This document shows positions 9,001 to 39,000 of a stretch of 64,000 bases of DNA, piece after piece. The stretch covers positions 508,896-572,895 of the forward strand of contig CAZTCI010000001.1 of assembly GCA_964612665.1 (NCBI GenBank), in the 5' to 3' direction. This DNA is from an uncultured Planctomycetales bacterium. Lineage in GTDB: Bacteria > Omnitrophota > Gorgyraeia > Zapsychrales > JAHFFX01. Position numbers and translations under genes: made by a program. The notes beneath the pieces are model-generated. The model did not search any database, was not told where the DNA came from, and saw only the letters and a list, made by a program, of their open reading frames with translations. The stretch's first letter is position 1; every line of letters begins with the position of its first letter.

Positions 9001-12000
9001 GCGGTTTGCATCGATCATTTGCTGCGCTTCGGCGGCTTCATGATCTAAACGTGAACGGACATTCTTAAGTGTCTTAAACTCGACGGAAGTTTCATTGAAA
9101 TTGGGGAATGGATTATCTTGCGGCATGCCTAATTCGTTACGGACCTGCGCCAATTCTTCGGGAGTCAATAACTGCGAATGGTTTCCTTCCTGACCAATCA
9201 TCGGTCTTAGACCCCAGCCTTTGATCGTATGCGCAATAATTACCGTCGGGCGATCGCTGGCGCGGGCTTCGCTCAAGGCTTTGATTAACTCAACCAAATC
9301 ATGGCCGCCCAAATCGGTAAAGAGCTCATAGATTTTTTCATCGCTGTATTTCTTCAAGAACCGCTTTATTGGCCTTTTCCTTTCCAAAGAGAGTTTCTTA
9401 TTCTTATCATCCAAGGGAAAAGGCCTAATATTGACTTTTGTTTCTTCCTTTGGATTCACAAAAGTCAATAAAGAAGAACGTTGTTCGATCATCCAAGCGC
9501 GGATTCCGGCGCCGTTTTGAGCGGAAAGATTTTGGTAAACTTTCTGGTCGATTGTTTCCATAACTTTCCTAAAGACACTTCCCCCTCGTCGGGCAAAAGC
9601 CGCTTGCAATTTTCGGCCCCAGCGCAGTTCAACGACTTGCCATCCAGCCGCCGCGTACATTCCGCGCAGTTGATCCAATTTCCAGTTTTCGGTATTTCCG
9701 TCGAGTGATTGGCGGTTGTAATCGACAATATGCGTCACGCGGTCCAAGTTAAATTCTTTCACTAACGTCAGAATCTCCCGCAGGTTTCCTTCTTCAGATT
9801 CAGCATCACCCAAGACCGCGAAGAAATGCGAATCAGAAACCGCATGGCCATGCGCCTTGAGCCATTTCCAAACAACGTTAAGTGCTAAGGCAACCGCCGG
9901 CCCTATGCCAACCGAGCCCGTCGGAATTTTGACGCCGTCCGGGTCCGCCATTCCCGGATACGCGTGCAGGCCTGGTTTGTCTAATTCATCCGTGTTGACT
10001 TCCGGATGCTTGGCGATGAAGGCGGCTTTTAATTCTTCAAGTTCTTTTAAGACTTCTGGCGCAAGACGGCCCCTGATATCTTCAGCCCTGAAATCAACCG
10101 GCAGCCGGACAGCGTTATCACGCAAACGATAAAGTGTATCGACGGGTAATCGACCTAAAAGATATTGAATGGCATGATACACCGGCGCGGCGTGCGGTTT
10201 GTGGGCGACAAAATCATGACCGCGCATGACAGCCAGCTCGAGGGCGATCATAATGTGCAATGCAGACGCGGATGCAGCCTGGTGCCCGCCGGTTTTAGGC
10301 AGTTCATATTTAATTTTATTGGCTTCATCAATTTCACCGATTGAAATCCCAAGCGCCCGACGGGCGATGCTTTCTAAAGCTTCGATGTCCTTCGGTGCAA
10401 ATCCTTCCGGAATTTTATCATTTCTATTTCGGGGAGGCCGGTGTCCGGATGAGCTCATTGCAACAATCATCATCGTGGACAAGAACAACGCAGCCACATG
10501 TCCACCTACGAAGTAGGACACAGCCAATAGTCCATCCAGTGCCAGCGCGATGAGGACAAGCGCAGTTGCAAATACGGTGGAGAGGTTTTGATCTGAGCAT
10601 TCTTTTATTCCATTTTTTGTTTTTTTGGTTTCCTGAGCTGAAAACTTTTTCCACCAGGCAAACGTTTCACTCAAACCCGTCCCAATATTCTTTTGTCGTC
10701 TCAACTTGTTGACAATCAAAATGATTAATGTTATGTTGGCGTCGAAAAGATCATTGATCAATAATTGCGTGGCCCTCTTTGAAAGATGGGAGAATCGTAA
10801 GTGAAGATCTGGGAATTTGAATGGGACAACTGGAATATTGAGCATATTGCTAAACATTCCGTAAAATCTCAAGAGGTAGAAGAAGCTTGTTATCGCCGCC
10901 ACGTCGCTAAGAAAACTAAAGATGACATTTATCTTGTCTATGGTCAAACGTATTCTGGCCGTTATCTTTTCATCGTTATTAAATATAAATCTAAAGGAAT
11001 TGTTTACCCTATAACCGCTCGAGACATGACTGATTCTGAGCAGAGATTCTTCCTTAAACGGAGGTAACATATGATTAAGAAGTCTTCTGTAATCCCAAAA
11101 TTTAAGAATGTCGCCGATGCGGCTGAATTCTTCGATCAACATGATACGACCCAGTTTCTCGACGAATTGCAACCAGCGCATCTTAAGTTCCCTAAGCCCA
11201 AGCATCTTTTGATCACCTTGAAACCTAAACAAATAACGAGGCTCAGACGCTTGGCCGACAAAATGGGTAAACCTTCCGATCAAATTGTTGAGCAATGGAT
11301 CACCCAAAAACTTGCCGAAGGGTAATGATCTGCCCAATGTGGCACGGCTCAATTTCTTTACAATCTCTTTAAAAACGCCTTTCGCTTTATCTGAGGATTT
11401 GGTTCGAATCGTCAGTATCAACAGCAACACATCAACGGCCAACACAAGGAACATCAAATGTAATCCCGGTCCCGGAACAAAATATCCTTTAAACACAACC
11501 ACCGGACGTTCCTCATCAGGCAGAAAACCTAATTCCTCGCGGATCTCCTCGGGAGATATTCTTAAAATATGTATGGGCTGAGGATGATCTTCAAAATATT
11601 TTAAGAACAGGCTTGTAATCGTTTGTCCGTTATCAGAAGCAATATGAAGACGGCCCAGAATAAAAAACGTGTCTTTAGCAGCTTTTCGGCCGCGCGATAA
11701 GATATTGATCATATTGGGGAACATGAATGGTTCCCTTAGGTCAATAGCGAATCTAAAGTTCTCCGAGACATTGATCCCTTTCAAAATTTCTTGAACAGCG
11801 GGCTCGGCCTGGCCGACGACATGATTTTCGCGTTTGGCTCTGGCCATGAGGGCTTTTATAAAAACAACAGTCAAATCACGCCAAGTTGTCAAGTCTTTAA
11901 GCATGTCCGCTGAGTTATCCGGGGGCAATGTTACGATCGCGGAAAAAACGAGACTGTTCCGGGTGTTGTAATAAAGAGAAATGCGTCTGTATAACGTTGT

Positions 12001-15000
12001 AACAGGGTGCATATAGCCGGGAGGTAACCATTGGGCCAAATCCTGCCACGTGGGAAGGATGAACAAATTCAACGCAGAATGAATAAATCCTCTTTTTAGC
12101 GATTGCAGTTTATCTAAAGAAACCTTCGAAGGGTCGGACAGCCATTGTTCATATTGCAGATAGTCATCTAATCGGGTGGCCAATTCATAACTCAAAATCT
12201 CCTCGACGCCAAACAAATGTCCTTTGGTACTACGGTTAAAATGGGTCGACACATACCACAGTTCGTCTTCTTTAAACCGGGCCACTCCTTCGACACCCGC
12301 AAAGATTTTCTTGCGTGCGGCCAGGAGATGGATCTCTTCTCTAAATAATTCATGCTCGGGATTGGTATGGTTTTCCCCGATTAAAAACAATCGCGGTGCG
12401 GATTCGGGTTTCAGGCGGACAGCGAGGAAAATTAATGTGCTCAATAAAAACGTCAGGTTTAAACTATTATCGAAACCATGGACGGCAATAAAGAAGCTCT
12501 TGAAATTTTCAGTCTTTTCCAATTTTCTTGACGACAATTCTTTATTGATCTTGTTGCGTTCTGATGACACATAGGCCAGGACAGCATCCAAAAATTTTCG
12601 ATGGATTGAATCTGTGGGTTTTACAATACGGCCATATTCCGCATATAACGATACAGCTTTATCAAAGGAAACTTCCCAACGGAAGCTGACAGTCTTTTGC
12701 CAAACAATGATTTGGCCCCGCCCGACAGATGACAAGAAGGCATTGGCTTTCTCGTCCGACGGGTTTTTCCGCGCCTGCAGCAAAACACACTCTCCATTAA
12801 ATGGAGGATAAAGAACCATCCGGTAAATAAAACCCAAATCACCCCCAAATTTTTGTTTCCTAAATAAATTTTCCAGTGCCTTGAAATGATGTTGTCGGTT
12901 GGAAATATCTCCCCCTCCTTTAGGAAGATATCCGGCAGCAGCATTAATCTTTGACCAAATTGCTTGAACGGCTTTTTGTTTGACATTAAATCTTTCCGCT
13001 ATCTGTTGATCACTTAGACCTTCAACGAAACCATATAAAATATTCAATTGTTTTTCCGTAAATACTGGTTTTGCCACATCGAATTTTGGAAACGGAGGCC
13101 TCCGGTCGACAAGTCCTAACTTTCTCGCTTTTTTGATAAGTTCCCTTCGCTCCGACGTCACAGCCAACACTTTATAAAGTCTCGAAATCTTTGAGCGTAT
13201 ATTGATTGCCGGTGAACTCAGCGCCTGGCCGATCTCAATCGTAGTATTTCCTTTATTAAGCAATCTTAAGATATGAAGTTCAAGCTCACTTAGGATGAAC
13301 GCATGTTTTTTTGCGAAAAGTTGTTTAGGTTTAACCAGCCGCTCAGACGATCCGAAAATCGCCACGCGGTATTCTTCATGCTGATTGAAAAATTTCCAAA
13401 GAAGATAAGGGTAATCATTATTAAAGTCGCGGGGTCCGCTTTTAATTTCCAGATTTAAAAGTTGATGAATTTGGCTCCTTGACTTGCGGATGGTTTCGGA
13501 CCCTGTCTCAAGCTGAGCGGCAATGTCCTTGTCATTTAATCCAGCATAAAGGCCTTTTAGAATGGCTATGTGTCGCGAAGAGAGTTCTTCGACGGACGCA
13601 CAAGATTGAACGCTGCGCGCTATGGCCGCGAGGACAGCGACAAAGATAAAACTGAAATTGGATAAATAATCCGATGGATTTGTAAGGATAAAAAAGTTAT
13701 GCTCTCGCTGCAACCCTGGCAAAAGACTTTGATTATCTCTTTTACGAAAGACTTCAAAGGGTTGAACAAACATAAACTGCGCGCCCGCTGTTCCCCTGCT
13801 AGTTTTAAAAACTTCACTTTGCCTAATCTGATTATTCAACGCATCGAGCGCTTCTTTAAGCGGTTGCGAGGTAATCAAATCTTTCCAGCCTCTTAAGAAG
13901 CCTATCTGTTCGAGCGCGCCAAAGATCCATGGTTCTTCATCAAACACAATAATGGTATCACTAGACCTTAAATCCCTTAATGTATTAAGCAGCCTAACCA
14001 CGACTGGTTGATCGATCCAAAAAGTTCCTTTTAGAATAACAGTCACACTTTCTTGTCCAGCTCGACGTAGAAATTCGACAATATCATCCAGCGCGTTGTC
14101 GATGTGTAACGTTTCCTTAGGGTAAATTCTATTTAGCAAAATTTTTTCTGGCTCCATAAACTGATTCACGAATGATTGCAGCTCCTTATAAGCTCTTTGC
14201 CGGTCTTCATGGTCATAGAGCCGGTCAATTCCGAGGACCAATTGGGCCGGCAGCTCCGCCACAAAAATGTCAACGCCTATTGCGGGATAAATCCGATACG
14301 GTTTTAAGAGACCAACCGCCGCTAAGACTTCTAACTCTCGCCGCCAGGCCTCGGCCAATGGCCCATAATCAACGCTTCCCCGCGATGCCAACCGTCTGCC
14401 TTGTTCTTCAACTATCATGGAAATCGCTTGAATCTGCTGGAGAATTTCTTCTTCGGAAATTATTTTGCCTCCGGTCCGTCTTGTGCTCTTTCGTAACGCT
14501 CGAACCAAAAATATAACCAGCGCGCTAATTGAAATTAGAGCAGCTGCGGCATAAATAAAACCAGTATCAACTAACATCGACGATGATTCTGGATATTTCG
14601 CGTCATAAGTTTTCGCTAATTGATACAACGTCCGCTCTACACGGTCTTTAAGACGGAGGAATTGCCTTTCTGATAGGGTCAATGTCACCATTATCTCTGG
14701 CCAGGAGCATGTCAGAATATGATTATTATTGTTTTTCTCAGCGAAATCACTTTGGCTTGTATCACTGACCGCATCCATAAGGACTTCCAGTTCTAATAGC
14801 GCTTTGACAATTATCTGACTTGTTTCTTCACCTCGACGATAAACATCGGTCATATCTTGTTTGGTTGGCTCCAACCTTTCATCCGTTGAAGGTTCCGGAA
14901 CATTTTCAAGTTCCGTCTCAAAATCAAAAACTTGCTGCTCCAGTTCTCTTCCCTTCTTAACAGCCCAATCCAAGACCGACGCTTTATAAAACAAAAGTAC

Positions 15001-18000: not shown

Positions 18001-21000
18001 CGGTAAAATGATCAAGATTTGGGCAGATGAGGTTTTGTCGCGATAAGTCTTTTCAAATTTTCTAAGTGATTTCTCGGTTTTAGAAAGGACGTCATTATAT
18101 GAAACAACCATGAAGACCGCTGCTGATACAAACATCAACAACGGCAAAACAAAATGCCCAGTTCCCCGGACACTTTCCCATCCGGTAAAGATCGGCACCA
18201 GAAAGGAATTTTCCACCTCAACATCGGAAGTTGAGGTCATTTTGCTCTGATTTTGCAGGATCCGAGCTATCCGGGAAAGATAGAGAACATAAATAACGCT
18301 TGCGAAACCAATAAGCAACGTGAACAATTCTCCATTGAAAGCAATCATTCCGAAACCAAACAACTTTGTACGATCTTCCATGAATGTTTTAAGGAAATCT
18401 CTCATCTTTTCTTGAATTTGAGATCGAAAGATATCCTGAACCCGGCGAGGCATAATATTCATACGGGTGCCCGCTTGTTTCCATGCTTCAAATTTTTCTT
18501 TGGTGAATTCTGCCATGAGCCATTGATCTTCTTCGATGGTCTTCAACATGCCACCTTTTTGGGGGTCAAACATTTCACCCAAAACTCTTGAAAAGTCATT
18601 CACATCAAAAGCGACCATGCGACCCAGCTTTCCATCATGAGAAAATGTCAGACCGTAATTTTCTCGCCAATTATGAAAATCGCGATCAACCAGTCCATAT
18701 GTCCAAATCCGACGCGTCAAATTCGAGAATTCGTTTTGAATGTGCCGAAGCTCCATTTGCAAAGCACTCACCTCATCCCACTGTTTATGTTTCTCAGAAA
18801 TCTTTATACGACGGGCAATGGCATCCAGCACTTCTCCAACGGGATGCACGCGTTCTTGAACAATCACATAAGGGAAACTGGTAAGTTTCTCATCCACGAC
18901 AATCGTCAAGTTATTTAAAATAGTCAACGTCATGGCAAAAAGATGGCCCAAATGTTCTTTAACCAATAGGTATCCAGGCAACACTTCTCTCTCGAAGTCC
19001 ACGTCGGCCTTCGGGACCTTGATAATAAGATTTGGAAACGCATAGGAGTAATATGCTTTCATCAGCCCGCCTTGGTCCAAATAATGAAAGGTATGACCTC
19101 GTAGAATACCTTCAACGGTGGTGATTCGAATGTGGTCAAGGTGTTCCTGTAAAACAGTATCCTCTATTCCCATTCTACGCCCCCATTGCATCAACCTTTC
19201 AGGCCAGCCCTCCATATAATTGTCCAATAGCGCTTCCAGAAGAGCATCTTTTAAATTGTTCCTGATCCGACGTGATATAGGTTGGAGGTGGCGTTGAATT
19301 AGTTTTTGATATAACCATCTGAGTATTAATATTAGAGTAACAGCAGTAACTGCGATCAACACCCCTACACGCCACCCATGCATCAGCTCGCTAGAAATAA
19401 GCTGGGCGTTGGATTTTTCCGTTGTTACATCAACCTGCGGGGCCGAAACAGATGAAAACATTTCATCCACCAGCCGTTTGGCTTCCTTGGCCGCATCCAT
19501 GCTTGAACTCATTTTTCCCGAAAAAATGGAAATCTCTCGCGGACTTAAATGCTGAACCGTCGTCGGCCGCGCCGCATTCTGAACCGAACTCACCAGAAAA
19601 TCTTTGAGGGTAAAGATCGAACCAATATGGATCGGATTGAAATCGTGGAAGAATCGATGAGCTTCTTCTTTGATTTGGTCAAATGCCGTCACCGTTGGAT
19701 TCCAGATGATATCGCGTCCCAGTAAATCTTTATACTCATCGGGAATTTCTGGAAATTTGCCAACGTTGAGATGATGAATCGAGTGCTTCACATGAGCGAT
19801 AAAGTGCGCATTATTGCCTAAAGGATTGATCCCGACAAACGGCCCGTCCATAATCAAAATACTTTTGCCCCGGAATGCCGGAGGAAGAAGGACGACAGGC
19901 AACTCAAAAACTTCGAATTGATAGTTTTGCTGATTGGCCGGTTCCGCAATGAACCGATTAATATCGCTGTAAACGGCGTAGACAACGGCATCATAGTTCT
20001 TTAATTTTTCCGGAGTTGCCTCCTGAATGAGCACCTGCACATTGAATTCCTTAAGTTTATCAACGGAGATCTCCGCCAGCTTGCGGATGTTCATAAAGTC
20101 TTCCCCAACAAGCAGCGATAATCCCACAGAATTTTGTTTTAACACCTCCGGATACTTTGTCTCGTAAGGCAAATTAAAACGATTTAATAAAGTCAAATAC
20201 TGCTCGGGCGTAACCGCGCTTCCTTCCGCGGCGATTGCATAGTATTGTTCCAAACTCAAAACCGCTTCACCGAAGACACTCAAAAAGCTTTCACGAGAAT
20301 TAATGACTTCTTGGACAGTTTCTGGACTGCGCGGGTGATGATAGCCGCGATGCAAGCGGCGATCCCAATTGCCGGACACGCCGCCGAAGAGTTTGTTGCG
20401 TTCATACAAAGTCACATCGTATCGAGAATCTTGAGCAATAAACCATGCGGCCGTGATCCCGAAGATTCCGCCTCCGATGACAGCGACTTTGCGTTTCGAT
20501 GGAGCAACAAACGCAGAACGGGACGCCGAAGGAGGTATCCCGGCATCGGCACTCAAATCGAAATCAAAGTATGGCTCCTCAAGCATGTCATCCAAATCGA
20601 TTCCCTCGAAGACCTCTCCCGAATTATCATTAGATTGAACAACTTTAGGATTCACGGGTTCTTCATCTTTCCAATTCCATCCGCCCGCTGCGATCTTTTC
20701 ATCAAACAACCGATGCGGATAACGCATAATGACCGCGTTGACGCCGGCGAATCCGCCCATGCCGTCGTGAACATCGTAACGGCCGCGGATGATGTATTCG
20801 CGATTCCAACGCACCGCTCCGTTTTTCTCGTGATAGCCTTGCGCCGCGTCGGGACTGTAGGTCAGCAATTCTTCCAGAGCATCGCGCCAGGCTTGCAAAG
20901 CTTGAATGTAAATGACCGCAGTGCCGATCCCGCCGACTTGCTTGCCTCGCACGCGATAATGATCGACCCGCGGATGTTTGGCCACAGCCAAGACCGATGG

Positions 21001-24000
21001 AATCGGCGCTCCGACGGAAAAATTAAATCTGACATTGCCATCGTTGTCCTGGATTCCTTCTCCAGCGAGCGTAAAGCGATTCGTCAGCGTCTGAACGTGT
21101 TCCAAAAATGTGCCTCGAAATTCCTGCGCGTCACCATGCTGAATCAAGTCGATCATCTCCGGCGTTAGTTTTTTCTGAATGCTCCAGATCACCGCGCCGA
21201 TGTAACGTCGAGTCACTGCCGAGCGAATCATTTTCCCATCGGCATCCAACGGGTGTTCGAAGACCTCCGCGACCACATGTCCCGTTGGGTGATTCAGAAT
21301 CATGGAACGAATTTGACGCGGACGGATCTGTTCGTAGGGCTGATTGACCCACGCGTCGTTATGAACCTGATAAAGTTCAAGGACATTCTCCAACGTCGGC
21401 CAGCGATACACAATCGTAATCCCCTGCTCCGGACGCTCCTCGCGCACGAACAGCGCCAGGTCGTCCAGCGGAATCTGCTCTATATTAGGAAAGAAGCGCT
21501 GCAGGGCATGATTCAATGTCGTGGGGATGTCTTGCCTTTGGAGCGCCAGCGGCGACGGAGCGGTGGACTCAAAATTCTTGATGCGGAATTGATAATATTC
21601 ATCTAAGGTGCTAAACCACGTTGAGAGCGGATGGCGATTGTTCTGGCGCCGAGCCGCTTCAAGAAGGCGGGAAGTTGAGCCAGAGAAGAACATCGTCGTC
21701 AAATGGCCGTTCAGATGGAGAGCTCTGGTATGAAGGATGGATACAACAAGGACTAAAATAATAGCCAAATTCAAAATCATCATCCATCCCCTGTCGTCAA
21801 AACCGTGGATGGCGAGGAAGTAGGTATGGGTGTTAGAATCGGCCGGACGAGTTACATAAGAACTCTGTCTAAGGACGGTCGCAATCAAAGCGAAGGCAAC
21901 GACAATGTATATATTAGAGAAGATACCTCGAACCTTTTTCTGATCTCCTCCGAACGCCTGCTCCATCGTTTTAGTCTCGAGACGGCCGGGATTGAATGGC
22001 GTCCGATCTTCCATCACTTTCCTTAGAATTCTCAACCGCCCGCCCAAGGCCAGTTCGCGGGATTGTCTGGCCGTAATGACATCCACATCCTGATCCGTAA
22101 ATCCGCGGGTTTGGAAATTGGAAATAGGATGCGCGTTAAAATTCTTGAGACGGGAATATTGTGCGTCGGTCAACCGGGCCTTGGCTTCATCCACATAACG
22201 GCCGGACGCAATCATTTGATCGGCTAATCCTTGAGGAGCAAAGACCCCGAATCGGGTCGGATGCTCCCAAACAACAATGATCACTCCCATTGGAAGACTC
22301 GCTAAAAATTCTTCTGTCCATCGCCGCGTCGATTCCAAGGGCGAAATGGTTCGATCGAGTTTGCGCGTTAGCCAAATATAAATATATTCATAAGCAAATT
22401 TTAAAAACACAACGTCCGCCGGCTTTATGTCTCGAACAAACGCTCTCATTTCATCTCTCGACATCAAATCACTCATATGATGATGAAGAGGCGCCAACTT
22501 TTCCAATCGCAGAATCGGATGACCGACGATCCCGACCAATTTTTCTTTCAGTCTTTTAAAACCCATCGTGATATCCCACTCACTCAGCCGATTGTCCACA
22601 GTTGTCATGGACGAAACATAATAACCGGCAAATAAATCAATCCCGGAAAGGATGTTGTGGAGTTGCGTATTGTTACGATTGAAGATCCCGATGGCGGAAA
22701 GGAGTTGTAATTGCAGGAAATAAATTCTGACTTTGATCGGAATCACGCTGTGTACGGTGAGCTGATCCTCACCGAGCCGAATCTGCTCTTCAATTTTACT
22801 GAGGATTTTTCGAACCGATTTTAGTGAATGGAGGAATTTAAATTTGAAAATGGAAACGACCATGAGTAACACGATGGCCAAATTCAAAATCATCATCCAT
22901 ACCCCGTCGTCAAAACCGTGAGTGCCGAGAAAATAGGCTTTGGTGTTGGAATTAGGAACCATGCACGGCATGTTCCACCCGATCATCATGTATCGGTTAA
23001 AAACAGCGATATCATGGTTCCCATCAGGTTTGACACCTCCAGTCATGTGTGTTATTCTTCCTTCACCGGAGGGGGACAACCAATGCATAAACGAAAGGAT
23101 AAAAACATGAACGCCATCAACATGACGGACATCGTCCGCAAGTCGATGCAAGAACTTGTTGTCCCTGAGTTGAAAATCTTGCAGGGTGATGTTCAGAGTC
23201 TCTAGAATGACAATCTTGAGATCAAGGCTGATCTTCGGATCCTCAATAACCGTGTCGACAATCTGGAAAAATCTTTGAACAGCCGGATGGATTCTCTCAA
23301 CAGCCGGATGGACTCCCTCGAGAAAAGGCTGGATAACTTGGATAAAAGGGTTGACGGCCTTGAAAGGCAAATTCATAGCATGCGCGAGGATTTTAAGCTC
23401 GCGCTCGATATTCATGAGCGGCTCACTGCGCTTGAAGTCAAAATTTCTCATCATAATTAGGCAGTGGTTTTGTTGACGAATCATCGCCGGGCCGATTTCC
23501 TCAAAGTTATATAAAGGAAATCGGCCCGTTGTTTTTTGGTTGCTGTATACGATTTTATAGAACGCCGTCACTGTCGAATCCCAGATCATATCGCGCCTAA
23601 GTAAGTCTTTATATCCCATCCCACCGGATTGACCATACCAAATGAAATAAACCAATGCCCATAAAACCAAGGCCACATCAATTCCAACCATGTATGATAA
23701 ATATGCCGATTGAACGCTGTTTTTATTTTGATCTGGCTCAAACGCAAACAAGCGCACGGACAGACGCGAATTCATATTCCTTAAAAGTTCATTTTGCTCA
23801 TTTATGATTTTTTCCAAATTCAACCGTCTCGCGATGGCCGCCGCGCCCACCAGTGCGACAATAACTTGGATCTCCCGTTGACCGGGCAGCCAGTTTTCCT
23901 GAAAATGCAGACGATTCATCTTCTTGATCAATTCTTTCTTCAAATTTAATTTTATTGATCGAATTTTGCCGGCCCGGGACGACAGAGGCACGTCAAAACT

Positions 24001-27000
24001 TTTGACTTCCACAAAAACTAATCGGTGGTTAGAGTCGATCAACACAGCGTCGATTTCGAACGACTTGTTTTCTCGATGGGGATCAGCGATTTCTTTATTC
24101 AAACTCACTACTTTGAAATGAAAATCCATCAGCAACTTGTGTACCGCCCGCAACTCATTGAGCGTGCCAAATCGTAACCCTTTTTTGATGCGGTAAAGAG
24201 CTTTCTCGATACCGTCCTCATTTAGGAATCTTTCCACCAACGAGGCCTCATTCACATTCAACGTCGGTTTCACCTCAGACCAAAGTTGTTGAATGTACGT
24301 TCGCCTGTCTTTCTGATGCTGTTTCCAAACCCGCTGATAAAATCCGCCATCAATCCATCCGTGCTCTAACGATAATCCCAGCCATCGCTCTTGTTTTTCC
24401 CACCGAGAAAAGATAAGCGGCTGGAAGAATTCTCGCGCCTGCAAAAAGGCCTGCACATCTTCATTGAGAAGCTCGTCGGAGTTCTTTAAAGGAGAAACAG
24501 CGCGGCTCAATTCATGCCGCAACAATAGCTTGAGCCATAACCGGCCGGTGCCAGGTTGCAATTTATTGAACATCTTCACAATCCTCTCGACCTGCCGGTG
24601 AATCAAAATGACGTGGTGTTGCGGATCATAGTCAGACATCAGGTCGATCAGTTCTCCCGTTGCTAATGGACACAGAATATGGTCTGCCCACAAAACCGTT
24701 GTAACCTTGGCCAAACGACTGTAATCCAAATTAAAGCTCTCAATGTCTTTAACAGCGATATCAAACCTTTCCGGAAAGTAAAACGCCTTCCCGTCGGAAA
24801 ACTTCAATGTAAAATGTTCTCGCCAGTTTCCTTCGGCCAATGAAACTCTCTGCGTATCTTCGTCGGTTGACGATGATAAGGCTTGTTGAATGTCGTTGAA
24901 CAACGCGTCCGTCGCTCGCAGCGACGGGCCTGATGGCGTCTTTAAATAAACCCCTTCACCTTCTTTAATCAACTCCGGCGCAACAGCCTCAGGCCATATC
25001 GCCCAGTGCCGATGAGACATCTGCACAGCCGCCGCAAGAGCGGCAGACATCAAAACAAGACTTACAATGCCAGCCCAATGCCAAACAATCATTACAACCG
25101 CCACAATTAAAATAATCCCCATGAATAAACTTTGATTTTGGTCTTCGTTCTTTTTATCGACGGATGCGCAGGATGCGTTATGACCGTTGCCATCCGCCAA
25201 AACCAATTTGTGCCGGCGCCAAAATTCATCGAGCTTCTCGGGATAGTTCACGACCGTTTTTACATCCAGCAGTGAGAATTCTTTGAATAAACTAAAGGCC
25301 ATATTGACCAATTGCTGTTCCGTGACTGGAAGTGACGGTTTATAAAAACTTAAAACCGCGTGTTTAAGCATCCCTTTTTTGCCGTCGGTCGCAAATCCGG
25401 ATTTTTTCTTCATATCCGTCAGCGCCTTGCGGATCGCCCAAATTAAATCCTGGTTGTTTTCAAAAGCCCTGGCTTCTTCCGTCGATATAAATACAGCCTC
25501 CTGAATAGGAACGATGATTGTTCCATCACCGTTCTCAAAAGGTCCTGTCAGTTTAAACAATTTCCGTTTTTGATCGACCTCATAAACCCTGGCCATCGCA
25601 TAAATATTCGTCATCACATAAATTGCCCATTGCCGGCTAATCAAATCTAAATCTTCCGCTGACAACCATAAATGAATAGGGAAAGACGGCTTATGTTCGT
25701 GGTAGCCCATCGAAATTTTATTGGGATTGCTTCTGCCTAGGATAGCGGCCGCTTGTTTATGGGTGATGCCGGGTAAAAAGGCTTTAATCAAACGGAAGCG
25801 CTCACGCATCCCCATCCATTTATCTAAGACCCTCAACGACGGCTGGCCGCTTGCAGCTCGTCGCTGGTTAATTTCCACCACCCAGTGTGCGATTGTTCGT
25901 TTAGGAATATTTGTCATCTGCGCGAGCTCTTCGGCCCAGGTGATGGTCAATTGTTCAGCCATGGATTCAACTAACTCTTGGCCCTGGGCATGTGTTGTTT
26001 GTGGACGTCTTTGTGATTGCTCAACCCATCGCTCTAAGAAAGCAGTATCCTCGGCGCTTAAGGTAATTTTTAAAATAGACAACAGGTTTTGGACAGCTTG
26101 CGGTTTCGGAATAGTAAAGCCTCTTTCCCATCGGTCGTATCTTGCTTTGCGGATTTCCATTCCGGGCATAGCATTGAGCATAAAGTCAAGCTGACGTCTC
26201 GATATAGTTTCGTCCTGGCGTTCTTTCTCGATGAGTTCGAAGACGCGTTTCAGGAAATCTCTGTATGCCGCATCCCGGGTCCACGGCAAGTTGCCGCGCG
26301 TCAATTCCACAACAGCCATTACCCAAAAGATACCAAGCCCGAGCAGTCTAACGCCCCAACCGCTCCCCAACGTCTCCCATCCAATCACCGCCTTCGCTTC
26401 ATGATCGGATTTTCTTTCATCGGAATCAACCGGCGAAATTGAAAAATGATTGGCGTTTATCGATGGGCCATTTTCAAAATCCAAATACTGAATAAACTGT
26501 TCAAATCGCTTCCAGAAAACAATGGTGACATCTATATTCTTCGTCGGATGATTGGCTTTGATAGTCCAGAATCCGAAGGCCGTGGTCCATTTCAATGACT
26601 CGATAATTTTAAAATCGCGGGACAAAACATGCTGCAAATGGTAGGCATCTTCCATAGAAAAATGCGCCATTTTTCCAAACTGATAAATGGGCCCTTCAAA
26701 CGGCAGATGGAATTCCCAATGTCCTTCGGAACTTTTCGGCAAATTCGCAAAAAGATCCGCCATTTGCGCACTCAAACATAAGCTATTATTACCGCCCACC
26801 ACAATAACATGGTGCGCGTAAGGCCATAGCTCGTCGGTTAAGTACTCTGATTTATAACCCGCATGACTTAAATAACTATCATCTCCGTTCAGATTCTCAC
26901 TGACATTTTCAAAAACGGCAGTGATCCTGGGATTCTCTAAAAGCTTATTGATAGACGAAGCGGCTGTCTTCAAAGGATCAAACTCTTCGTTAGTATGAAC

Positions 27001-30000: not shown

Positions 30001-33000
30001 TTGCCGAACGGCTTGGTCATTGTGCATTGTCGCCCAAACACTATGCATGCGCTCTTCAGGAAATTCTTCTGTAATTCTGGTGTAAATCTTTGACATTTCA
30101 AAAAGCGGTTCGGCTCCTGCTCGCAAGAACACAATACGCGTGTTCTTCCGGTATTGCTTATTCTCTTCGTGGGATCGAGGATATTCTTTGATACGCATGA
30201 ATACGTGTTGTATGAAATCCATCAATCCCAGTCTGCGCTCGGCGCCATGACCCAAAAATGTCGTCAAATGTTTAGTATCCAAATAGTGTTGATACGCTTT
30301 GGCAAACATTGCTTGATCCCCCGCAGAAAAGATTCGTCCGAGGGATTGAATACTCTGATTACGCGCGCGAACATTATCTTCATGTAATCTGAGTCGATTT
30401 AATCTAACCGAGGCAATGGCCGCAAATCCTGCCAGGATTTTAAAGATCAGCATTACACCCTTGATGCCGATTATGATCCACGCGGCGTCGAGGGTGAGGG
30501 CGGGAAGCTTTCCAACATCAGATGTTGGAAAGGGCGGGTTCAACCTGCGGGGTTGATGTCCGTTGGCATGCTTCTCTTGCGGATGGGTGAACTTTTCCGA
30601 GGAAAACTTCTTTATATCTTGGTCGCTCCACTCTTCTCCAAACACCTTTTTTAAATCCGATTTATTTCCGTTCTTTCCGTTCCTCTCCTTCTTTGCCAAA
30701 TCGTCATAGAATTTTTTCATGATCTCATCTTGCCGACGATCGAACTCCTCGGCGGAGAGAGACCAGTCATCTCGCTCTCGTTTGTATGCTTCCTCCGGTT
30801 TCCGATTCTGATTTAACCAAACGTCCTTAAGAACATCGTAGAGATTACACAACATGCGATTCCCCGCAAATTGCCTTAATCCCTCCCGATTGTCCTTATT
30901 CTTCAATATAATGCGGGCCATTTTAGTCTTCTCGAGATCCTGCTTGAGAAGGTGAACTAGGGCTTCATGGCGTCCGAGGTTTATTTTGGCCTCCCCGAAC
31001 ATGTCTTTCACAATTTGAACAAAAAGCTCAGGACCGATCTCCCTCATCGATAGCCAGGCATGCAAGACGATTTCTACTTTTTCTTCCTCGCTTTGAATAC
31101 GATGATGCCAAATCCAGATTTCATCAGAATTTTTGAGACCGCCAGAGGCATGGGAAGATCGAGAAAGGTCCCCATAGATCACACCGACGACGAAGAAGAC
31201 CACGATCAACATTTGTATCGGCGAGAGAACCGTCGACTCCACTCCCAATCCCAAGGCATTCATGGCCGTTGGTTTCCCGGGCCCGCGGAATGCTGTGAGT
31301 TCATTCAACCTGCGGGGTTGATGCCCGTCGGCAATTTCATTCGAAGACTTGATGTGGCGGAATCCTCGGTCGGAGATGTTCAATGTGAACCCATCCTCAT
31401 CAGAGAAACTACTGTAAAACAAAATCTCCCGGGCCAAATACGTTTCGTTAAACTCGATGACCAGCGCCTCACGCTTTTGGCCCATCTCCAACAGATCGTT
31501 CCACAAGAATGTTCTTGAAAAACGAAGTTCGCCAGCACCGATACGAAACGTAATGATGATGTCATTTCCGATGAGCCGGCCTTTCACAAAATAGATCCCT
31601 TGATCTTCCGTCACAATCCGGATTCTGGAATGTCTCAACAGCGTTGAAATCGGCAATTTGATTACTTCTCTGATATGATAAACTTTCTGGAGGGAATATT
31701 CGGCGTAGAAGGACAGCTCGTCTGCATCTGGAAGATGAAGGATAAAGTCATGAATCGGCGGCAATCCGCAGGCGGAATTGGTGAGCATGGCCATGATCAT
31801 AAAACGGATCAGCGTCGGGCTGCGAGTGAAACCAGCGACCTTAAGCCAGAATAGCCATACGATCATTGCCGTAATCAAAACGGCGAGGAAATATGCTAAG
31901 AAAGCAGCTGATAATTTCTCCTCAGAAGACGTCTTCCACCAGGTATATTTTTCCTTCATCTCATGATAGGAATTCAAAATAAGATTTAACGTTCCCTTCA
32001 CGCTTTGTTCCGTTGTCCCCCGCTCGGTGCTGATGTCTTGAATCGTCCATCCATTTAAGATCAGCGTAATAATCTCGCGCTGCGGCGGCGACATTTGATT
32101 CAATAGGGCCCGACGATGTGGATCCAATGATTGAGAATCGCGGATAATTTCGCCCAGGATTTGTTTCCGTTGAGAAGCACCCGCGCCTTGGAAATGAATG
32201 TTGATGCCTTCATGCAGCGGATATAATTCATCGCACCTTTCTTCCCGTTCAATTTGTTCTCTTAGGGGTTTCAAAGACAATTCGTTCTTAAGATCACGGT
32301 ATCTGAGTAATCCTCGACGGGCGGTGATGATCACCGTAGTCCACTTAATCTGCAATAGTCGGGCCACATCCGCCGGATGATAACCTGCAATGGCAAACGG
32401 AAGAATTTCTCGCTCCTTTTCCTCCAGCTGATCAAAGATCTCTCGATGGTCCAAGAGAAAATCTTGTTTAACCTCTCTGAGAATATTGATGAATTCTCGA
32501 CGGTTGGGAGATTTCAGGAAGAAATTGAATTCCGCATCTCGATCGTTGCGGATAACCATCATGGCCAACATGCCGGGTAAAAGGAGTATGACCAAAAAGT
32601 AAAGGCCCTGTATTTCTATAAAAATGATCTGTGTAAACGCGATCAAGACAAGCACGGACGGGAATACGGCGGAAAGTTTTTCCACCTTCCGATCTTGCGA
32701 TGTGGGGGCCAACTCTTTCTCAACAAGCTCCCCACGATATACCATCCGCTGAACAAGGCCCATCGGATAATTGATTTCTTTTAAGTCACCCTTATAGGCT
32801 TCACGCCGGATAACTTCATTGAGCAGGCGAAGTTTCTTTTTGATCTTTTGGACCTGATCTTTTTCTTGCGCACTTAAACTTTGATGATTAACGTATTTTT
32901 TGTGAAGTGTATAATCGTAAACGCTGAGCGAGATCGTCTGTTGTTCTTCTCCAACAATAACGACATTACCTTGATCCCCGGCTGGTTCGATGAAGAATTG

Positions 33001-36000
33001 ATACACAATTCCCTCAGCATAGAGATAATATTGGATTTGTGCATGGCTGTTATTAAAAATGCGGATATCATCAACCGAAAGATAATGCGGCCCATCAGGA
33101 TGATTGTGCAGGTCCAAATAAACGAGGGGATAATCTGGATTTAGTTCCGGACCGACGGAATCCTTATCGCCTTTGACGATACTGTAAAGGTCCCCTTCCA
33201 AGGATTGATGGGAAACTTCAAAAGGTAAATATCCAGAGGCGACGGTGTAAAAACGATCAATCGCGCGCCAGAACTCCGGCGTCCCGACGGCCGCGGCAAA
33301 TGGTCGAGCGCTGTAGCGTGTTCCTTCCTTCGCACTAATAATATCCTGCTTTATCTGATCGAGCGTCATGACTGGCCGACGCTGGATCCGGGAGATAAAC
33401 TTCCGACGGATGAATTCCTGGGCTTCCAGTTCATGGACGGCCATACCGATTATCGCGACCGCCGTCAGGCCGAGCAGGCTAAGCCAATCGGTATAGGCGG
33501 AAAGTTTTTCCACCTTCCCAACCCCGGAGGTTGGGGAGGATAATAATTTTTGGCTAAGATCTGCAGCCACATCCAAGTTTTCCAACACTTTCGTCGCATC
33601 TTTAGAACTTTTAATAAAGACAACCGCCTGAGAAACCGCCGCCGATATTGTTTCTATTTCGCCGATCATCGGAAAACTTCTCTTCCAAATAGCAAACTGG
33701 TGATTCCACGCAGCCAAACGCAGTTTGATGGCCAGATACCTCTTATCGGCCCATAACTCCTTCACTTGATCTCGGGCATGGACCATCGACGGGATTCGGT
33801 CCAAGGACAGGAGCAATCTTTCCTGATTTTCCCGTCGTTGTGCTTCCTGAAGTTCCCGTAATTCTTTTCTAATTTGCTGTAGTTCTTTTAAACTATGGAA
33901 CAATTGCTCAGTGGACGGGCCTTTAAGGACCGTCCGCGACATAGCTGCTGCCATTGCCCCCATCCCAGCAGAGAGCAATATCTTTCCGACGGGGATTCCA
34001 AACCATAACGCGGTCCCCCCATCTACACCTACGAGGTAAAGATGGATCCCCACTCCATACAACGCCAGTGCAATCATGACGGATGGAAATATGGCGAAAA
34101 GTTTTTCCACCTTCCCAACCCCGGGGGTTGGGGAGGATCTGAGGATCACCGCCAGCATTTCAATTAGTCCAACCAATCCCTTAAACACAATCCAAATCCA
34201 CACGGCTTCGATCGTGACGGCGGAGACGTTCTCGATGGGATTGTGATCGAATTCTTCTAGCGCATCGATTTTTCCGTATAAATATTGGGCCAAATGGCGG
34301 ATATCTTTTCGATAGTCGTGCGTCTTAACCAAATCCCAGAGGTTCAATTGTTCCCATTGATCGCCGGCAGCTTCGAGAGCTGCTTGGATTATCTTTAACC
34401 ATTCCTTCGCATAGAATTCTCGATGACGGAAATTGGACGCCACAATCCAGTGCAGTAATTCTTCTTCGGAAGATGTCTTCAACATCTCAATCGCGGCCCG
34501 GCGTTTGGCTGGCGAAGTGACCACCAAATCATTCATCCGCAAATGCTCGTTGAGAATGTGCTTCAGGCGCCGAGTCCTGGCAGAATTCGCCAAGCTGGTT
34601 TTATTTGTGAAGTCATCAAGAGAATTGAACGGATTGTTTAGCTTGCGAACCATCACCACAAATTCGGTCTGCGTCATTGTAAATCCACTCAAAAGAAAAT
34701 CCACCTCATCAGCGTAATTAAGGAAATATAGAATTTGTTTTTTGGTGTTTTTCGGGTGCTTCTGCAATTCTCGACGATGTTGCTCCGCATTTTCTTTCTT
34801 CTCTTTTCGTCTTTCGTTCTCTTTCTCTAAATCCGCCCGTGCCCTTTCACGAGGATTCTGAAATAGAATCTCTCGACGGTTTTCGGACGTTCGTTCCCAC
34901 GACATCGCAAAGACAAAGATATATGCCAGCAACATCCACGGACTGAACAGATAAGTACGAACTCCGGAATGATGGACGATTTGTTTCTGTGGAGTTTCTT
35001 CTTTAGTTGACAAGCCAACTTTCAGGGCTTGGGCGCGGCTGGCGGAGAGGTAAATCAACCGTTGAACAAACATGCCCGCGATCATCAGCACCGTAAAGAC
35101 ACTCATTCCCGTCGATAAATCGATCGTCACGGCGCGGTGTTTTTCGATATCAGAAGAACGACTTGGTGTTTTATCTTGTGCATTCAACCTGCGGGGTTGA
35201 ATGGACATCCTGTTCCCCTTCACACCTCCGAGGCGCGAAAGAGCATTATTTCTTAGCTTTTTACGAATACTTATAATTTTTAACACTGAACGAATATGCC
35301 ATTCTCTTAGCCCCAACCGCTCTTCCCGGATTTCTAATCTATCCCCAGGATATTTTTCAAAATCTGCAGTCACAATTTCGATAAGCCGTTCCCTTTTTTC
35401 TAGCTTTTCTCTTAAACGCACTCCCGCGGCTTTCTGCTTTAAGAACGTTAAATCATAATCCGGCCATATTTTGCTAATAATGTAATTCGACACTTGTTCA
35501 ATGTATTGATGCGATGATCCCATCTGTTCGACAATGATGCTTGATGATTGATCCAAAGCTATTTTGCGGACTAACACTTCTTTTTGCGGGAGCGTTAGTC
35601 CATACCTATCTCCTATATCGTTAAGGGTCCTTACAAGTCCTTCTTTAGTGATGGCATAGCCACTACTCTCCATAATGTCGCGAGCAAAACTTACTCTATT
35701 ACCATGCTCCATCGCTGTCTCCTGAGACGATAGAGAAGATCGGTATTCCTGGATCCCTTTTTGGCGATCTCGGTTTCGCGCATATGTATTTCGTTCGCCT
35801 CGAATTTTTAAATTAATTCCATTAACGACATATGTCAATAAGCCTACGCCATTGCGCCGATCAAATTTGATCACACTGCTGCGAATAGTTTTAATGAAGT
35901 CATCTGTTCTTTCCTTTAGGAAGGATCTATTCCATCTCTGTTTAACTAAGGGCATTTCTGTCAGACCGGCGATGAGGACTTCCATCGCCAAACCATCTTT

Positions 36001-39000
36001 CTTATCTTGAATAAGGTCAATTAAACGGCTCTGTTGCTCACGGCTTAAATATCCTCTGGAATGACGTGGCATGCCCAAGATCGTATTGACAGCGGCTTCA
36101 TCTCTTTGCTGAGGAGCCCAAATAATTTTAAGTTTAGACTCTTTAATAACCGGCACAGGAGGATTCAGCCCGTACCATTTCTTCATTTCATAAAGAATTT
36201 CTACTGAGCTTTTTCCTTTTAGATCGTGATTTTTTGCCCAGTTCAGCAGAAGCCCCTCTAAACATTTTCCTCCAAACCCTGGAATACCTGTATGAATAAT
36301 ATCGCCCACTTTTAAATCTACTATCTTCCCTGCACGGCGATGATTGGCTAGATGTTGAAGGATCGCCCATTGCAACCGCTCTTCAAGTTTGTCCCAGGAG
36401 AATTTCCTCGCCCGTCGGAATTGATCCAATACCGTTTCCAATTCTTCAAGGGTTACTGGTTTTTCTTCTGCCATCGTCATAAGAACAGCAGATGCGCAGA
36501 GGACTGCTATCCACGCTTCCGCACCTACGAGGTGCTGATGGGTAACCATGGCGACGAAAGCGGCGGAAATGATGATAAAGCGGAAGACTCCGTCGAGGAA
36601 ATCATTCAGTCGGCTGGGTTGAACAAATACAATTCGACGCAAAATGGAATTCACATTGTCTTGGCCGACATACGCAAGCGCCGCCGCAATTCCTACCAGA
36701 ACAAAAATCCATAAGGATGGACCAACGGCCATCAGTTTTATCTCTCGATCCCAAAACTGACTTGGCCCACACCGGCGGACAACAAATTTCTTTTCCAAAT
36801 CCTCTTTGACCGTCGTCACATCTTCTTGGACGATCGCGTCCGCCACACGTAAAGAAAATCCCATTTGCAGGGCCTGACGGCCGGGCATGGATGGGCTATA
36901 TCTCAAGCGAAGCCCCTGAATCAACGCGCGATAGGGCGCTTCCTGTCCCCGGAGAAACTTAAGGAAGGCAAACTGTTTGATTTCTTTGGTGGATACGGAG
37001 GTTTCAATATTATTTCTAAGATACGCTAAAAATTCTTTGTAATAACTGACCCAGTGCTCAAGGATTCTTTCCAGCCCCAACTCATTTAATTGTTTGTTCA
37101 AACGATTTGTGTTCCCAAAGACCAAATCTGTCGGTTTAAATTTATCAAATGTATCGGAGGTAATAGGACTCAATAAACAGCGCTCATTTAACGTTGATAC
37201 ACTGAGCTCATGCTTTTCGCCCCCGATTCTGACCCACCGCCCCAATCCCCGTCGGGCCAGGGCAATGAGATATTCGGGTTCGATATCAAATTGATCTTTC
37301 CCTTGATAATAAACGTGAATGTCCAGGTCCTTGATCATGGACCACAATGGGATTTGATTTTCGCTAAAAAGATAGGTCGAGGAGCCGGTGACCGTGATGA
37401 TCGGAGCCTCCACAATGGATAACGTAGCGACTTGCTTTAGAAGTTCGATTAAATCGACCGGCGGTAAAGCTGGATTGTCTGGCTGAACAATAAACTGGCG
37501 CTCAGGACGATAGTAGGAAATGTGTTCATCTTGGTCCACGATCAAAACAGGCCAATGCACTGTTTGGACCGCCGCCAGTAATATCAGCGCGTAGACCGCC
37601 TCGTTCAAACCGATCAGATCTCCGTGGGCCAAAAGACCGGATAAAGCCGCGAGGATGGCGATAGGGCGGAAGAGTTGTGCGATCAACCTGCGGGAGTGAA
37701 CAGACTTGATAAAGCGGAAAATTCCGTCGAGGAATAACATCACCCTCTCCGACGGCGGCGAAGTCTTGAGAAATTCGTAAAACGCGCGGAGGTTTTCAAG
37801 GATGACGCGGGATTTGGAGATTAGAACAGCGGCCATCAAAACAATAATGAGAATTTCCGCGAGGTGAAACACATTATTCGACGAAAAATTTGATTTTCTC
37901 GTCGGTCTTATCCGTGCAGTCGAAAGGAAATCGATTCGATGGGCGTTCAACGTCGCGGCATCTAATAATTCAAACCCTGGGAATGTTTGATCGACGATAT
38001 GTTTAATCAAATCCGCCAACTGATCCGCAGGGATTTTGATTAGATATCCTGGAATTCGGTGCATCTGCTGAGGACTAATTTCCCTCATCTCTTCTGCAGT
38101 CAAAAATTGAACCGCGGCCATCGATACAACCCGGCCTTCTAATCTGTTGACAGTCCATTTTCGCGACATTATACTTTGAATCGAAAAGGAGATAGATTGA
38201 TGACTTCTCTTCAAGATGCTATGAAAATCATTAAACCGCTTCAAAACCGTTTCAAGAAAAGCCATAAGTCCAGAAGAAAAACGAAGATTGCCGACGATCT
38301 TTTGGGTGCGTTCAAAGGTGCGACCGAAGGTAAATCTTCCAGTCAATGTGTTCGAGAATTGAGAAATTCTTCTTATGGTAAGTTTAAATAACCCTTCCTT
38401 GCTCTTGGACTCCGATGTCCTTGTCAGCTGGTTGACGCTCGAAGAAGATATTCTTACCCATAAAAAGCTCTGGGAAGCTCCCCACAAAATAATGACAATG
38501 GTTGAGGAAAATTCTTCTCTCGGTTGTTCAACGATTATCAATCTTATGGAAATCAGGTTTGTGTTGCGTGCTAAGAAGAAATTCAGTGAGCATAAGATTA
38601 CATCTTCTCTTAATAAACTCTCCGAGATTCTGAAGCTATTCATTCCAGATGAAATCAACCTATTAAAGGCGAATGAACTCCAGTCCAAATATCTTTCATT
38701 ATCGCCAACCGACGCTATCCTTCTGTCTGTGGCCACAACCCTAGACAATGTTGTCCTAATCACCCGCGATCGAGAATTATTGAAAGCTGCCTCAAAAATT
38801 GTCTCCGCATCAACTCCTGAAGAATTTCTGGCGAAACGCTGATCTCTTCTGTTCCAATAAAAATTCCCCACCAGCATTGCAATTAGCCCAACCACTCCCT
38901 TAAACACAATCCAAATAAAGCGGAAAATTCCGTCGAGGAATAACATCATCATCTTCGACGGCGGTGAGGTTTTAAGAAGTTCGTAGAACGCGCGGAGGTT

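Follow-up and report, generated by a model that had tools for sequence, protein, structure and literature searches.

Few cases of antisense nested genes are generally accepted in bacteria. In both Shigella flexneri 2a and enteroaggregative E. coli, the pic locus holds the complete set1A and set1B genes (ShET1), which lie antisense and entirely within a longer open reading frame (ORF) (PMC3500342). We analysed a 64,000-nt stretch of DNA from an uncultured bacterium assigned to the Omnitrophota (contig CAZTCI010000001.1, positions 508,896 to 572,895; hereafter the window), in which three short units, each headed by a predicted sigma70 promoter of the form TTGACA-N17-TAnnnT, lie antisense inside a giant ORF that spans the window from end to end. 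Two of the three are toxin-antitoxin (TA) systems, a brnT-brnA operon and a vapB-like/vapC operon, and the third is a small coiled-coil gene with a terminator. As at pic/set1AB, a complete gene with its own (here predicted) promoter lies wholly inside a longer ORF of the opposite strand; the set1A and set1B genes reportedly have promoters of their own. The two loci differ in the size of the host ORF (~4 kb at pic, more than 64 kb here), in the nested product (an enterotoxin there, TA modules here) and in the number of nested units (one there, several independent ones here). A small functional gene embedded in a very large multi-module gene is also known from Bacillus subtilis, where comS lies inside srfA. 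However, comS is read from the same strand as srfA in another frame and lacks its own promoter, whereas the units described here are antisense and carry promoters of their own (predicted).

The closest described counterparts of the host gene are the giant ORFs of Omnitrophota. These contain numerous transmembrane (TM) helices and divergent SecA DEAD domains (10.1101/2023.11.21.568195), and their domains are few and poorly conserved (PMC10066038). The most frequent families of their 'multi-enzyme' class are PF08241 and PF02518, a cluster is formed by PF07517, and sequence singletons account for 80% of the long proteins (10.64898/2026.06.07.730766). None of these three descriptions mentions antisense genes, promoters or TA modules inside the giant ORFs.

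In the window, the minus-strand frame with codons at plus-strand positions 3k-2..3k contained no stop across 63,999 nt (21,333 codons), in contrast to 849-1344 stops in each of the remaining five frames. The window lies wholly within a single ORF, longer than 21,333 codons and open at both window ends, and, with the stop-free frame running through all of it, the nested units are inside giant-ORF coding sequence, as had been originally predicted. Codon usage of the giant frame is coding-like throughout, the nested units excepted, and its translation has an ordinary amino-acid composition. Hydrophobic TM-like segments recur every few hundred residues (68 windows with a mean Kyte-Doolittle hydropathy of at least 1.8 over 19 amino acids, corresponding to ~60 distinct segments by this crude predictor). 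Pfam matches of the giant frame form a mosaic of SecA_DEAD/P-loop_SecA, HATPase_c, many HTH_3/HTH_31, Transketolase_N/Transket_pyr, DAO/NAD_binding_8, Sigma70_r4_2, GerE, methyltransferases and TPR, with PF02518 and PF08241 among these unrelated enzyme and regulator families. Strong matches include HATPase_c (78 bits), Transketolase_N (79.5 bits) and, in PDB, pyruvate dehydrogenase E1 (PDH-E1) for the transketolase-like segment (E 2e-29). The SecA-like segment scored 23.2 bits with PF07517, slightly below the gathering score of 24.6, and E 7e-4 with PF21090.

Relatives of the giant ORF proved hard to find. The best relatives of the SecA-like segment in an exhaustive library were SecA-like proteins at only 24-34% identity, none of which matched the giant ORF beyond that segment, and a further protein search returned one weak hit for it. 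A 1167-amino-acid giant segment matched histidine-kinase ATPase domains only in a protein search, and neither a 901-amino-acid segment nor an alignment of two paralogous giant modules found a relative in the genome, metagenome and viral contig collections. No known RNA families or tRNAs were found in the window. The ORF is like the Omnitrophota giant ORFs ('Archaeovorin' or multi-enzyme mosaic) in being far longer than 20 kb, in its many TM helices and putative, divergent SecA DEAD-like segment, in its tiling of unrelated Pfam families including PF02518, PF08241 and, just below the gathering score, PF07517, and in having almost no sequence relatives.

We scanned both strands of the window for exact matches to TTGACA-N17-TAnnnT and found four, three on the plus strand and one on the minus (giant-sense) strand. 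The three plus-strand sites of the original prediction are all present. They lie at 10709-10737 (unit 1; -10 TATGTT) and 23030-23058 (unit 2; -10 TATTCT), both with TGn preceding the -10, and at 38147-38175 (unit 3; -10 TATACT, 11 of 12 consensus positions). The fourth, at 35838-35810 on the minus strand (-10 TAATTT), was missing from the earlier list. Dinucleotide-preserving shuffles gave a mean of 0.29 matches on both strands together, and none of 100 shuffles reached four. Because the whole window is coding on the minus strand, we added shuffles that respect the frame. Shuffling the codon order of the giant ORF gave an expectation of 0.20 matches on the plus strand, and shuffling synonymous codons with the protein kept gave 0.11; the probability of three or more plus-strand matches was at most 0.0005 (2,000 frame-respecting trials). 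The density of the motif is therefore not that of random sequence (four matches seen against 0.1-0.3 expected). Looser sigma70-like matches were no more frequent than chance predicts (36 seen for 35.7 expected, and 26 for 28.3); the excess is confined to the exact consensus spaced by 17 nt.

All four exact matches are followed by a Shine-Dalgarno sequence (SD) and a start codon, 24-97 nt past the -10. On the plus strand we counted an SD with ATG or GTG opening an ORF of at least 40 codons, 15-110 nt downstream; the background for such signals is 2.4% of plus-strand and 6.6% of minus-strand positions, and the probability of finding them at three of three plus-strand sites is ~1e-5. Plus-strand variants spaced by 16, 18 or 19 nt, or with one -35 mismatch, were not followed by translation signals, the sole variant with such signals being a relaxed minus-strand match at 51738. 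The SD before each plus-strand start is strong, as predicted (GGGAG, GGAGG and AAGGAG in units 1, 2 and 3, respectively). Measured from the first base of the -35, the start codon lies 53 nt away in units 2 and 3, within the predicted 40-60 nt, but 92 nt away in unit 1. When the three promoter regions were aligned, no homology was seen outside the hexamers, which agrees with the earlier view of them as independent occurrences; the idea of a common ancestry was dropped. An octamer, TCGAAAAG, is common to units 1 and 3 (10742-10749 and 38181-38188, plus strand), where it begins 5-6 nt past the -10, approximately at the expected transcription start; the rest of these promoter regions is unrelated. 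The three plus-strand motifs also share a codon phase (start = 2 mod 3), a coincidence with a chance of 1/9 that we did not use as evidence.

In unit 1 the SD (10788-10792) lies 8 nt before the GTG start of a brnT-like toxin gene (10801-11067, plus strand; 88 amino acids), which is codon-aligned antisense to the giant frame. After a gap of 3 nt it is followed by a brnA-like (CopG/ribbon-helix-helix) antitoxin gene (11071-11325, plus strand; 84 amino acids) with its own GGAGG at 11060-11064. The toxin-then-antitoxin order is the same as in an annotated Leptospira pair. The BrnT product matched the Pfam family BrnT_toxin (PF04365) over the entire profile (positions 1-77 of 77; E 9e-7, 29.5 bits, with a gathering score of 34.5), and tblastn aligned the ORF with annotated BrnT toxins on plasmids at 38-43% identity over 86-94% of the query (E down to 3e-10), 32 of the 33 records listed covering at least 80% of it. 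No match to the BrnT product was found in PDB or NCBIfam. The brnA product matched CopG_antitoxin (PF12441) at E 5e-9 and 37.2 bits, over the gathering score of 28, and NCBIfam BrnA weakly. The leader of unit 1 contains a palindrome, ATCATTGATCAATAAT (10750-10765, plus strand), the only clear one in the three units and a candidate operator for the antitoxin.

Unit 3 has the opposite order. Its SD (AAGGAG, 38186-38191) lies 8 nt before the ATG of an ORF in the vapB position (38200-38391, plus strand; 63 amino acids), which overlaps by 17 nt a gene for a vapC-like PIN toxin (38375-38842, plus strand; 155 amino acids). The VapC product scored above the gathering thresholds of both PF01850 (PIN; E 9.5e-9, 36.4 bits against 23.6) and PF13470 (28.1 bits against 27) and was 31-35% identical to annotated haloarchaeal VapC. 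Acidic PIN residues could be assigned by inspection, namely D12 (LLLDSD), E59 (NLMEIR), D112 (SPTDAI) and D131 (ITRDRE). No PDB match to VapC was found, and a search with the vapC locus gave no relative in the genome, metagenome and viral contig collections. Look-ups for identical proteins returned no record for any of the nested genes, and a concatenate of all nested proteins had no match at E <= 1e-3 among 5.8 billion protein clusters. Units 1 and 3 resemble BrnTA and VapBC type II operons in gene sizes, in the domain families of brnA, vapC and (below the gathering score) brnT, in having closely spaced or overlapping genes, and in gene order, with the toxin leading in brnTA and the presumed antitoxin leading in vapBC; both also have a predicted sigma70 promoter, and unit 1 has a palindrome in its leader. 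Operons of these types usually stand alone, either between genes or as part of mobile elements, whereas here they are embedded antisense, and their synonymous codons are restricted by the host ORF.

Unit 2 encodes a coiled-coil ORF of ~125 codons (23083-23460, plus strand), with its SD (GGAGG, 23068-23072) 10 nt before the ATG and an in-frame TAG at 23203-23205. For the giant frame this triplet is CTA (Leu), and a C-to-T change from CAG, if that is how the amber codon arose, would have left the giant-frame amino acid unaltered. Downstream lies an intrinsic terminator (23488-23539, plus strand) consisting of a 14-bp perfect stem (23488-23501 / 23515-23528) with a 13-nt loop, followed by TTGTTTTTTGG; its folding z is -4.06. 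On the giant-sense strand no T-run follows the hairpin, and therefore the terminator should stop antisense (plus-strand) transcripts only.

To compare coding potential, we slid a codon-usage log-likelihood trained on the giant frame over all six frames (637 windows). A plus-strand frame rivalled the giant frame in just 6 of the 637, and five of these six fall in the three units (10801-11100, 22901-23200 and 38301-38800), where the codon score of the giant frame collapses. The sixth, 39201-39500, is antisense to the HATPase_c domain and was read as an artefact. Motif sites thus coincide with the only three plus-strand coding-potential peaks that are not explained as the antisense of a giant-frame domain, and the earlier claim that every nested unit carries the promoter holds in this window for the units that stand up as genes. 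Other plus-strand ORFs of the window had no significant Pfam match and no favourable coding score. Further candidates for nested genes, at 902-1453, 20245-21168, 25721-26194, 31060-31518 and 50996-51487 and at ten more places, were dropped; they are without a promoter and without a significant Pfam match (one is marginal, E 0.03), and the giant frame scores higher. One of them, the 307-amino-acid ORF at 20245-21168, appears spurious and is antisense to a GC-rich patch of the giant ORF described below. A nested unit was also considered at the lowest-scoring giant segment (50926-51417), where no supporting ORF was found.

The brnT, brnA and coiled-coil genes are codon-aligned with the giant frame, and each TTA, CTA or TCA in them would be a giant-frame stop. 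In the giant frame itself, the three account for 4.0% of the codons. We found none of them among the 30 Leu and 16 Ser codons of the three aligned genes, in contrast to vapC, which stands in another phase and uses TTA, CTA and TCA four times each. We then resampled synonymous codons with local usage and scored the fraction of trials in which the antisense frame stayed open, which was 0.18 for brnT, 0.04 for brnA, 0.0004 for the coiled-coil gene, 0.054 for the vapB-like gene and 0.33 for vapC. The joint probability is ~5e-8, with promoters, leaders and the terminator not counted in. Given this low joint chance, the giant frame is held open by selection even where it is not coding-like. Selection may act as a filter on surviving insertions, as later purifying selection, or both.

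Each unit fills ~70-76% of one loop between two hydrophobic TM-like segments: unit 1 (10709-11325) lies in the loop 10585-11394, unit 2 (23030-23540) in 22915-23631 and unit 3 (38147-38842) in 37879-38859. Unit 3 is flanked by a TM-helix linker repeat on the minus strand (copy B, 37709-37908), which is 84% identical in nucleotides and 78% in amino acids to copy A at 38915-39114 on the same strand, at a spacing of 1206 nt. Near unit 2, a linker repeat at 22850-22952 (minus strand) has a partner at 21737-21839 (81% identity, spacing 1113 nt). The cargo between successive linkers differs, one module holding the antisense vapBC and the next a HATPase_c domain. The linker family around unit 3 extends over 36573-39114 and separates modules of 1134-1206 nt with unrelated cargo; its opening 28 nt (TGATAAAGCGGAARAYTCCGTCGAGGAA) are repeated at 36573, 37707 and 38913. 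A second linker family is found at 21737 and 22850.

This layout invites comparison with chromosomal integrons, in which TA cassettes carry their own promoters, sit among unrelated cargo split by repeats, and are thought to stabilise the array. Here, however, neither attC sites nor an integrase were seen, the repeats are coding TM-helix linkers, and the whole array is one reading frame. An integron cassette array was accordingly rejected: flanking inverted repeats were not found, and the direct repeats encode TM helices. Integron-like attC sites and transposon ends were also looked for around the units, and none were seen.

The observed motifs and their excess, their tie to SD and start codons, the family assignments of the nested genes, the terminator and the codon constraint are best explained, with a probability that we put at roughly 60%, if the three units are autonomous, probably selfish cassettes with their own sigma70 promoters that lie antisense in permissive loops of a giant membrane-protein gene and are independently transcribed while the giant frame is kept open. 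Each cassette (the brnT-brnA operon, the vapB-like/vapC operon and the small coiled-coil gene with its terminator) would bring its own -35, 17-nt spacer, -10, SD and start codon. Selfish or mobile cassettes would have landed in, or recombined into, permissive loops of a very large gene, and only those insertions that left the giant frame open would have survived, in the codon-aligned genes by avoiding TTA, CTA and TCA. The cassettes would then persist as independently transcribed genes, and the antitoxins would presumably repress their own promoters, as they do in type II systems elsewhere. We infer transcription from the three sites, origin by insertion and autorepression from sequence.

Several observations weigh against the cassette explanation. 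The ORF in the vapB position matched no family in Pfam or NCBIfam, antitoxins included; BrnT scores under the Pfam gathering cut-off; the unit 2 ORF is broken by its internal TAG; and recognisable terminators were not found at units 1 and 3. The units bear no insertion scars, be they target duplications, terminal inverted repeats or attC-like sites, and no related giant gene free of the cassettes turned up in the genome, metagenome and viral contig collections. A coiled-coil gene that was stop-free in antisense on arrival is expected with a chance of only ~4e-4, a figure that fits long co-residence or pre-adaptation better than recent random insertion. Finally, the kinship of the giant ORF with the Omnitrophota 'multi-enzyme mosaic' kind is a resemblance in architecture, not proven membership.

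Of the other explanations, the one that keeps most weight, though we regard it as doubtful, is that the nested TA operons serve the giant gene, either as addiction modules that penalise deletions in a huge, repeat-bearing gene liable to recombination or, in line with the regulatory coupling of the original prediction, by tying its expression, through convergent transcription, to the supply of antitoxin. Consistent with a protective role, two of the three units are TA systems, the units adjoin repeated TM-linker segments that would be deletion hot spots, and chromosomal TA loci reportedly stabilise neighbouring DNA. All units are antisense, so that RNA polymerases would meet head-on, and the unit 2 terminator is predicted to stop the antisense transcript while sparing the giant mRNA. 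However, there are only three units in 64 kb, one of them non-TA and broken; TA cassettes are common selfish passengers anywhere in genomes; and a uniformly antisense orientation has a chance of 1/8 (1/4 if an all-sense arrangement is also counted). As to head-on coupling itself, the sequence is neutral, apart from the one-way terminator of unit 2. It is less probable, indeed unlikely, that the units are fossils, that is, decaying remnants with silent leftover promoters whose plus-strand ORFs are intact only for lack of time. The amber codon of unit 2 is silent in the giant frame, as expected if only that frame were selected there, the nested proteins have no close homologues among the 5.8 billion protein clusters, and BrnT falls short of its gathering score. 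Against decay stand four complete, intact ORFs in two operons with full-length profile coverage, the acidic PIN residues seen by inspection, and three near-consensus promoters with three strong SDs, given that exact hexamers decay fast when unselected. The original prediction had taken the units for expressed genes rather than fossils. By sequence criteria units 1 and 3 are intact and hence not fossils (CopG_antitoxin and PIN above gathering scores, BrnT at 38-43% identity), while unit 2, with its amber codon, shows decay, and for all three expression is predicted from sequence signals.

We consider it very improbable that the giant ORF is not a translated gene at all (owing to mis-assembly, artificial sequence or an untranslated region) and that the plus-strand units are the only true genes. 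Such a view could draw on the lack of relatives of any giant segment, beyond the domain-level matches above, in the collections searched, and on a nearby duplicate of 75% protein identity in which substitutions are spread evenly over codon positions (29/30/35). Yet most of the giant ORFs published for this class are sequence singletons, and the other internal repeats show an excess of third-position substitutions. The stop-free run of 21,333 codons, the coding-like codon usage outside the nested units, and the strong in-frame HATPase_c, Transketolase_N and PDH-E1 matches argue further for a real gene. That the motifs and plus-strand ORFs are accidents of antisense sequence is the least credible proposal, and is already effectively refuted. 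Looser promoter-like matches do occur at the random rate, and long antisense ORFs are common in the codon-aligned frame, as the 307-amino-acid ORF illustrates. Chance does not, however, account for the plus-strand motif count or for its association with SD and start codons, nor for the families to which Pfam and tblastn assign the nested genes, and the motif sites coincide with the only three plus-strand coding-potential peaks that are not the antisense of a giant-frame domain. The prediction that the sites are not chance, and that each heads a real-looking plus-strand transcription unit antisense in the giant ORF, was borne out in these respects.

The components of this locus are known, but their combination is new: several independent, promoter-equipped operons lie antisense in one ORF exceeding 64 kb, under a codon constraint that can be measured, and the three descriptions of giant bacterial genes cited above contain no such arrangement. 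The locus adds clear, family-assignable antisense nested genes to the few accepted bacterial cases. For Omnitrophota-type giant genes, which span tens to hundreds of kilobases, the restricted synonymous codons of nested, presumably foreign genes bear on whether such an ORF is really kept and translated as one unit: they provide direct sequence evidence for selection on giant-frame continuity. The test can be transferred to every published giant ORF by searching all six frames for domains, scanning for promoters, and counting TTA, CTA and TCA in the nested genes. If the TA promoters are autoregulated, they would fire head-on into a gene that needs tens of minutes to be transcribed.

Promoter-like signals were also seen in the sense direction. 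The fourth exact match (35838-35810, minus strand) is followed 97 nt downstream by AGGAG, 6 nt and an ATG in the giant frame (35723-35710, minus strand; amino acid 9430), one of only two strong SD-ATG sites in the giant frame in the 64 kb. This ATG opens a stretch of low coding score, and the translation there is helix-turn-helix-like ('LTLPQKEVLVRKIALDQSSSIIVEQMG') without a Pfam match. The segment 35710-35838 has the look of a gene in sense orientation, complete with promoter and ribosome-binding site (RBS), that was fused into the giant ORF, or else of an internal start for a shorter product. The relaxed minus-strand match at 51738 (TTGATA-18-TATGGT) has an in-frame ATG with a weak SD 84 nt later and lies just upstream of the lowest codon score of the giant frame (50926-51417, -2.3), a segment with no family match and no rival frame. 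These two sites, together with the differing cargo of the linker modules and the patchy composition described below, suggest, but do not prove, that sense-oriented cassettes are also taken up and fused into the polypeptide. The fourth match bears as well on the earlier claim that the organism uses canonical sigma70 signals. With the sense-strand match preceding an SD and ATG the claim is plausible, but the cassettes could have imported their promoters.

The giant frame is patchy in composition, the variance of GC content at third codon positions (GC3) being 2.4 times the binomial expectation. Two GC-rich patches on the minus strand, 8395-9960 and 20302-21999 (GC ~0.50, GC3 up to 0.59, against window means of 0.446 and 0.47), coincide with the PDH-E1/transketolase-like segment, which aligns to residues 168-678 of the 886-amino-acid E. 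coli E1 (E 2e-29), and with an N-terminal piece of DAO/NAD_binding_8. Both patches resemble fragments captured from foreign genes. The locus suggests that capture of whole cassettes into loops between membrane segments may underlie the domain mosaics of giant proteins. A broader proposal, which we put forward only as speculation and do not expect to hold in full, is that giant ORFs grow as 'in-frame cassette arrays', in which TM-hairpin loops accept whole genes, with promoter and RBS, in either orientation. If this were true, a gene captured in sense orientation would forfeit its stop codon and be read as a polypeptide domain, accounting for the multi-enzyme mosaic, for the GC-rich pieces of PDH-E1-like and DAO-like sequence, and for the promoter, SD and ATG at 35838-35710. 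Antisense captures would stay autonomous for as long as their codons never spell a giant-frame stop, and nested TA modules would both mark the process and help to prevent deletion of the huge gene.

The giant ORF contains internal duplications of different character. The nearby duplicate of 75% protein identity mentioned above (43957-44679 and 44959-45669, minus strand; giant amino acids 6111-6347 and 6441-6681) differs by 56 non-synonymous and 19 synonymous codon changes, and its even spread of substitutions suggests that it may be under little constraint beyond the open frame. In the other internal repeats, the third-position excess is accompanied by the usual deficit of second-position changes. 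Two paralogous giant-frame modules, beginning at 63640-63999 and 58030-58419 (minus strand; giant amino acids 1-120 and 1861-1990), are 28% identical over ~330 amino acids; both start with a RelE/ParE-like 'YRIFF.Y.W' motif, with a ParE_toxin match of E 0.034 in one copy. Along the giant ORF there are at least six HTH_3 (Xre-type) domains. The RelE/ParE-like and HTH_3 pieces are possibly sense-oriented TA remnants that have been absorbed into the polypeptide.

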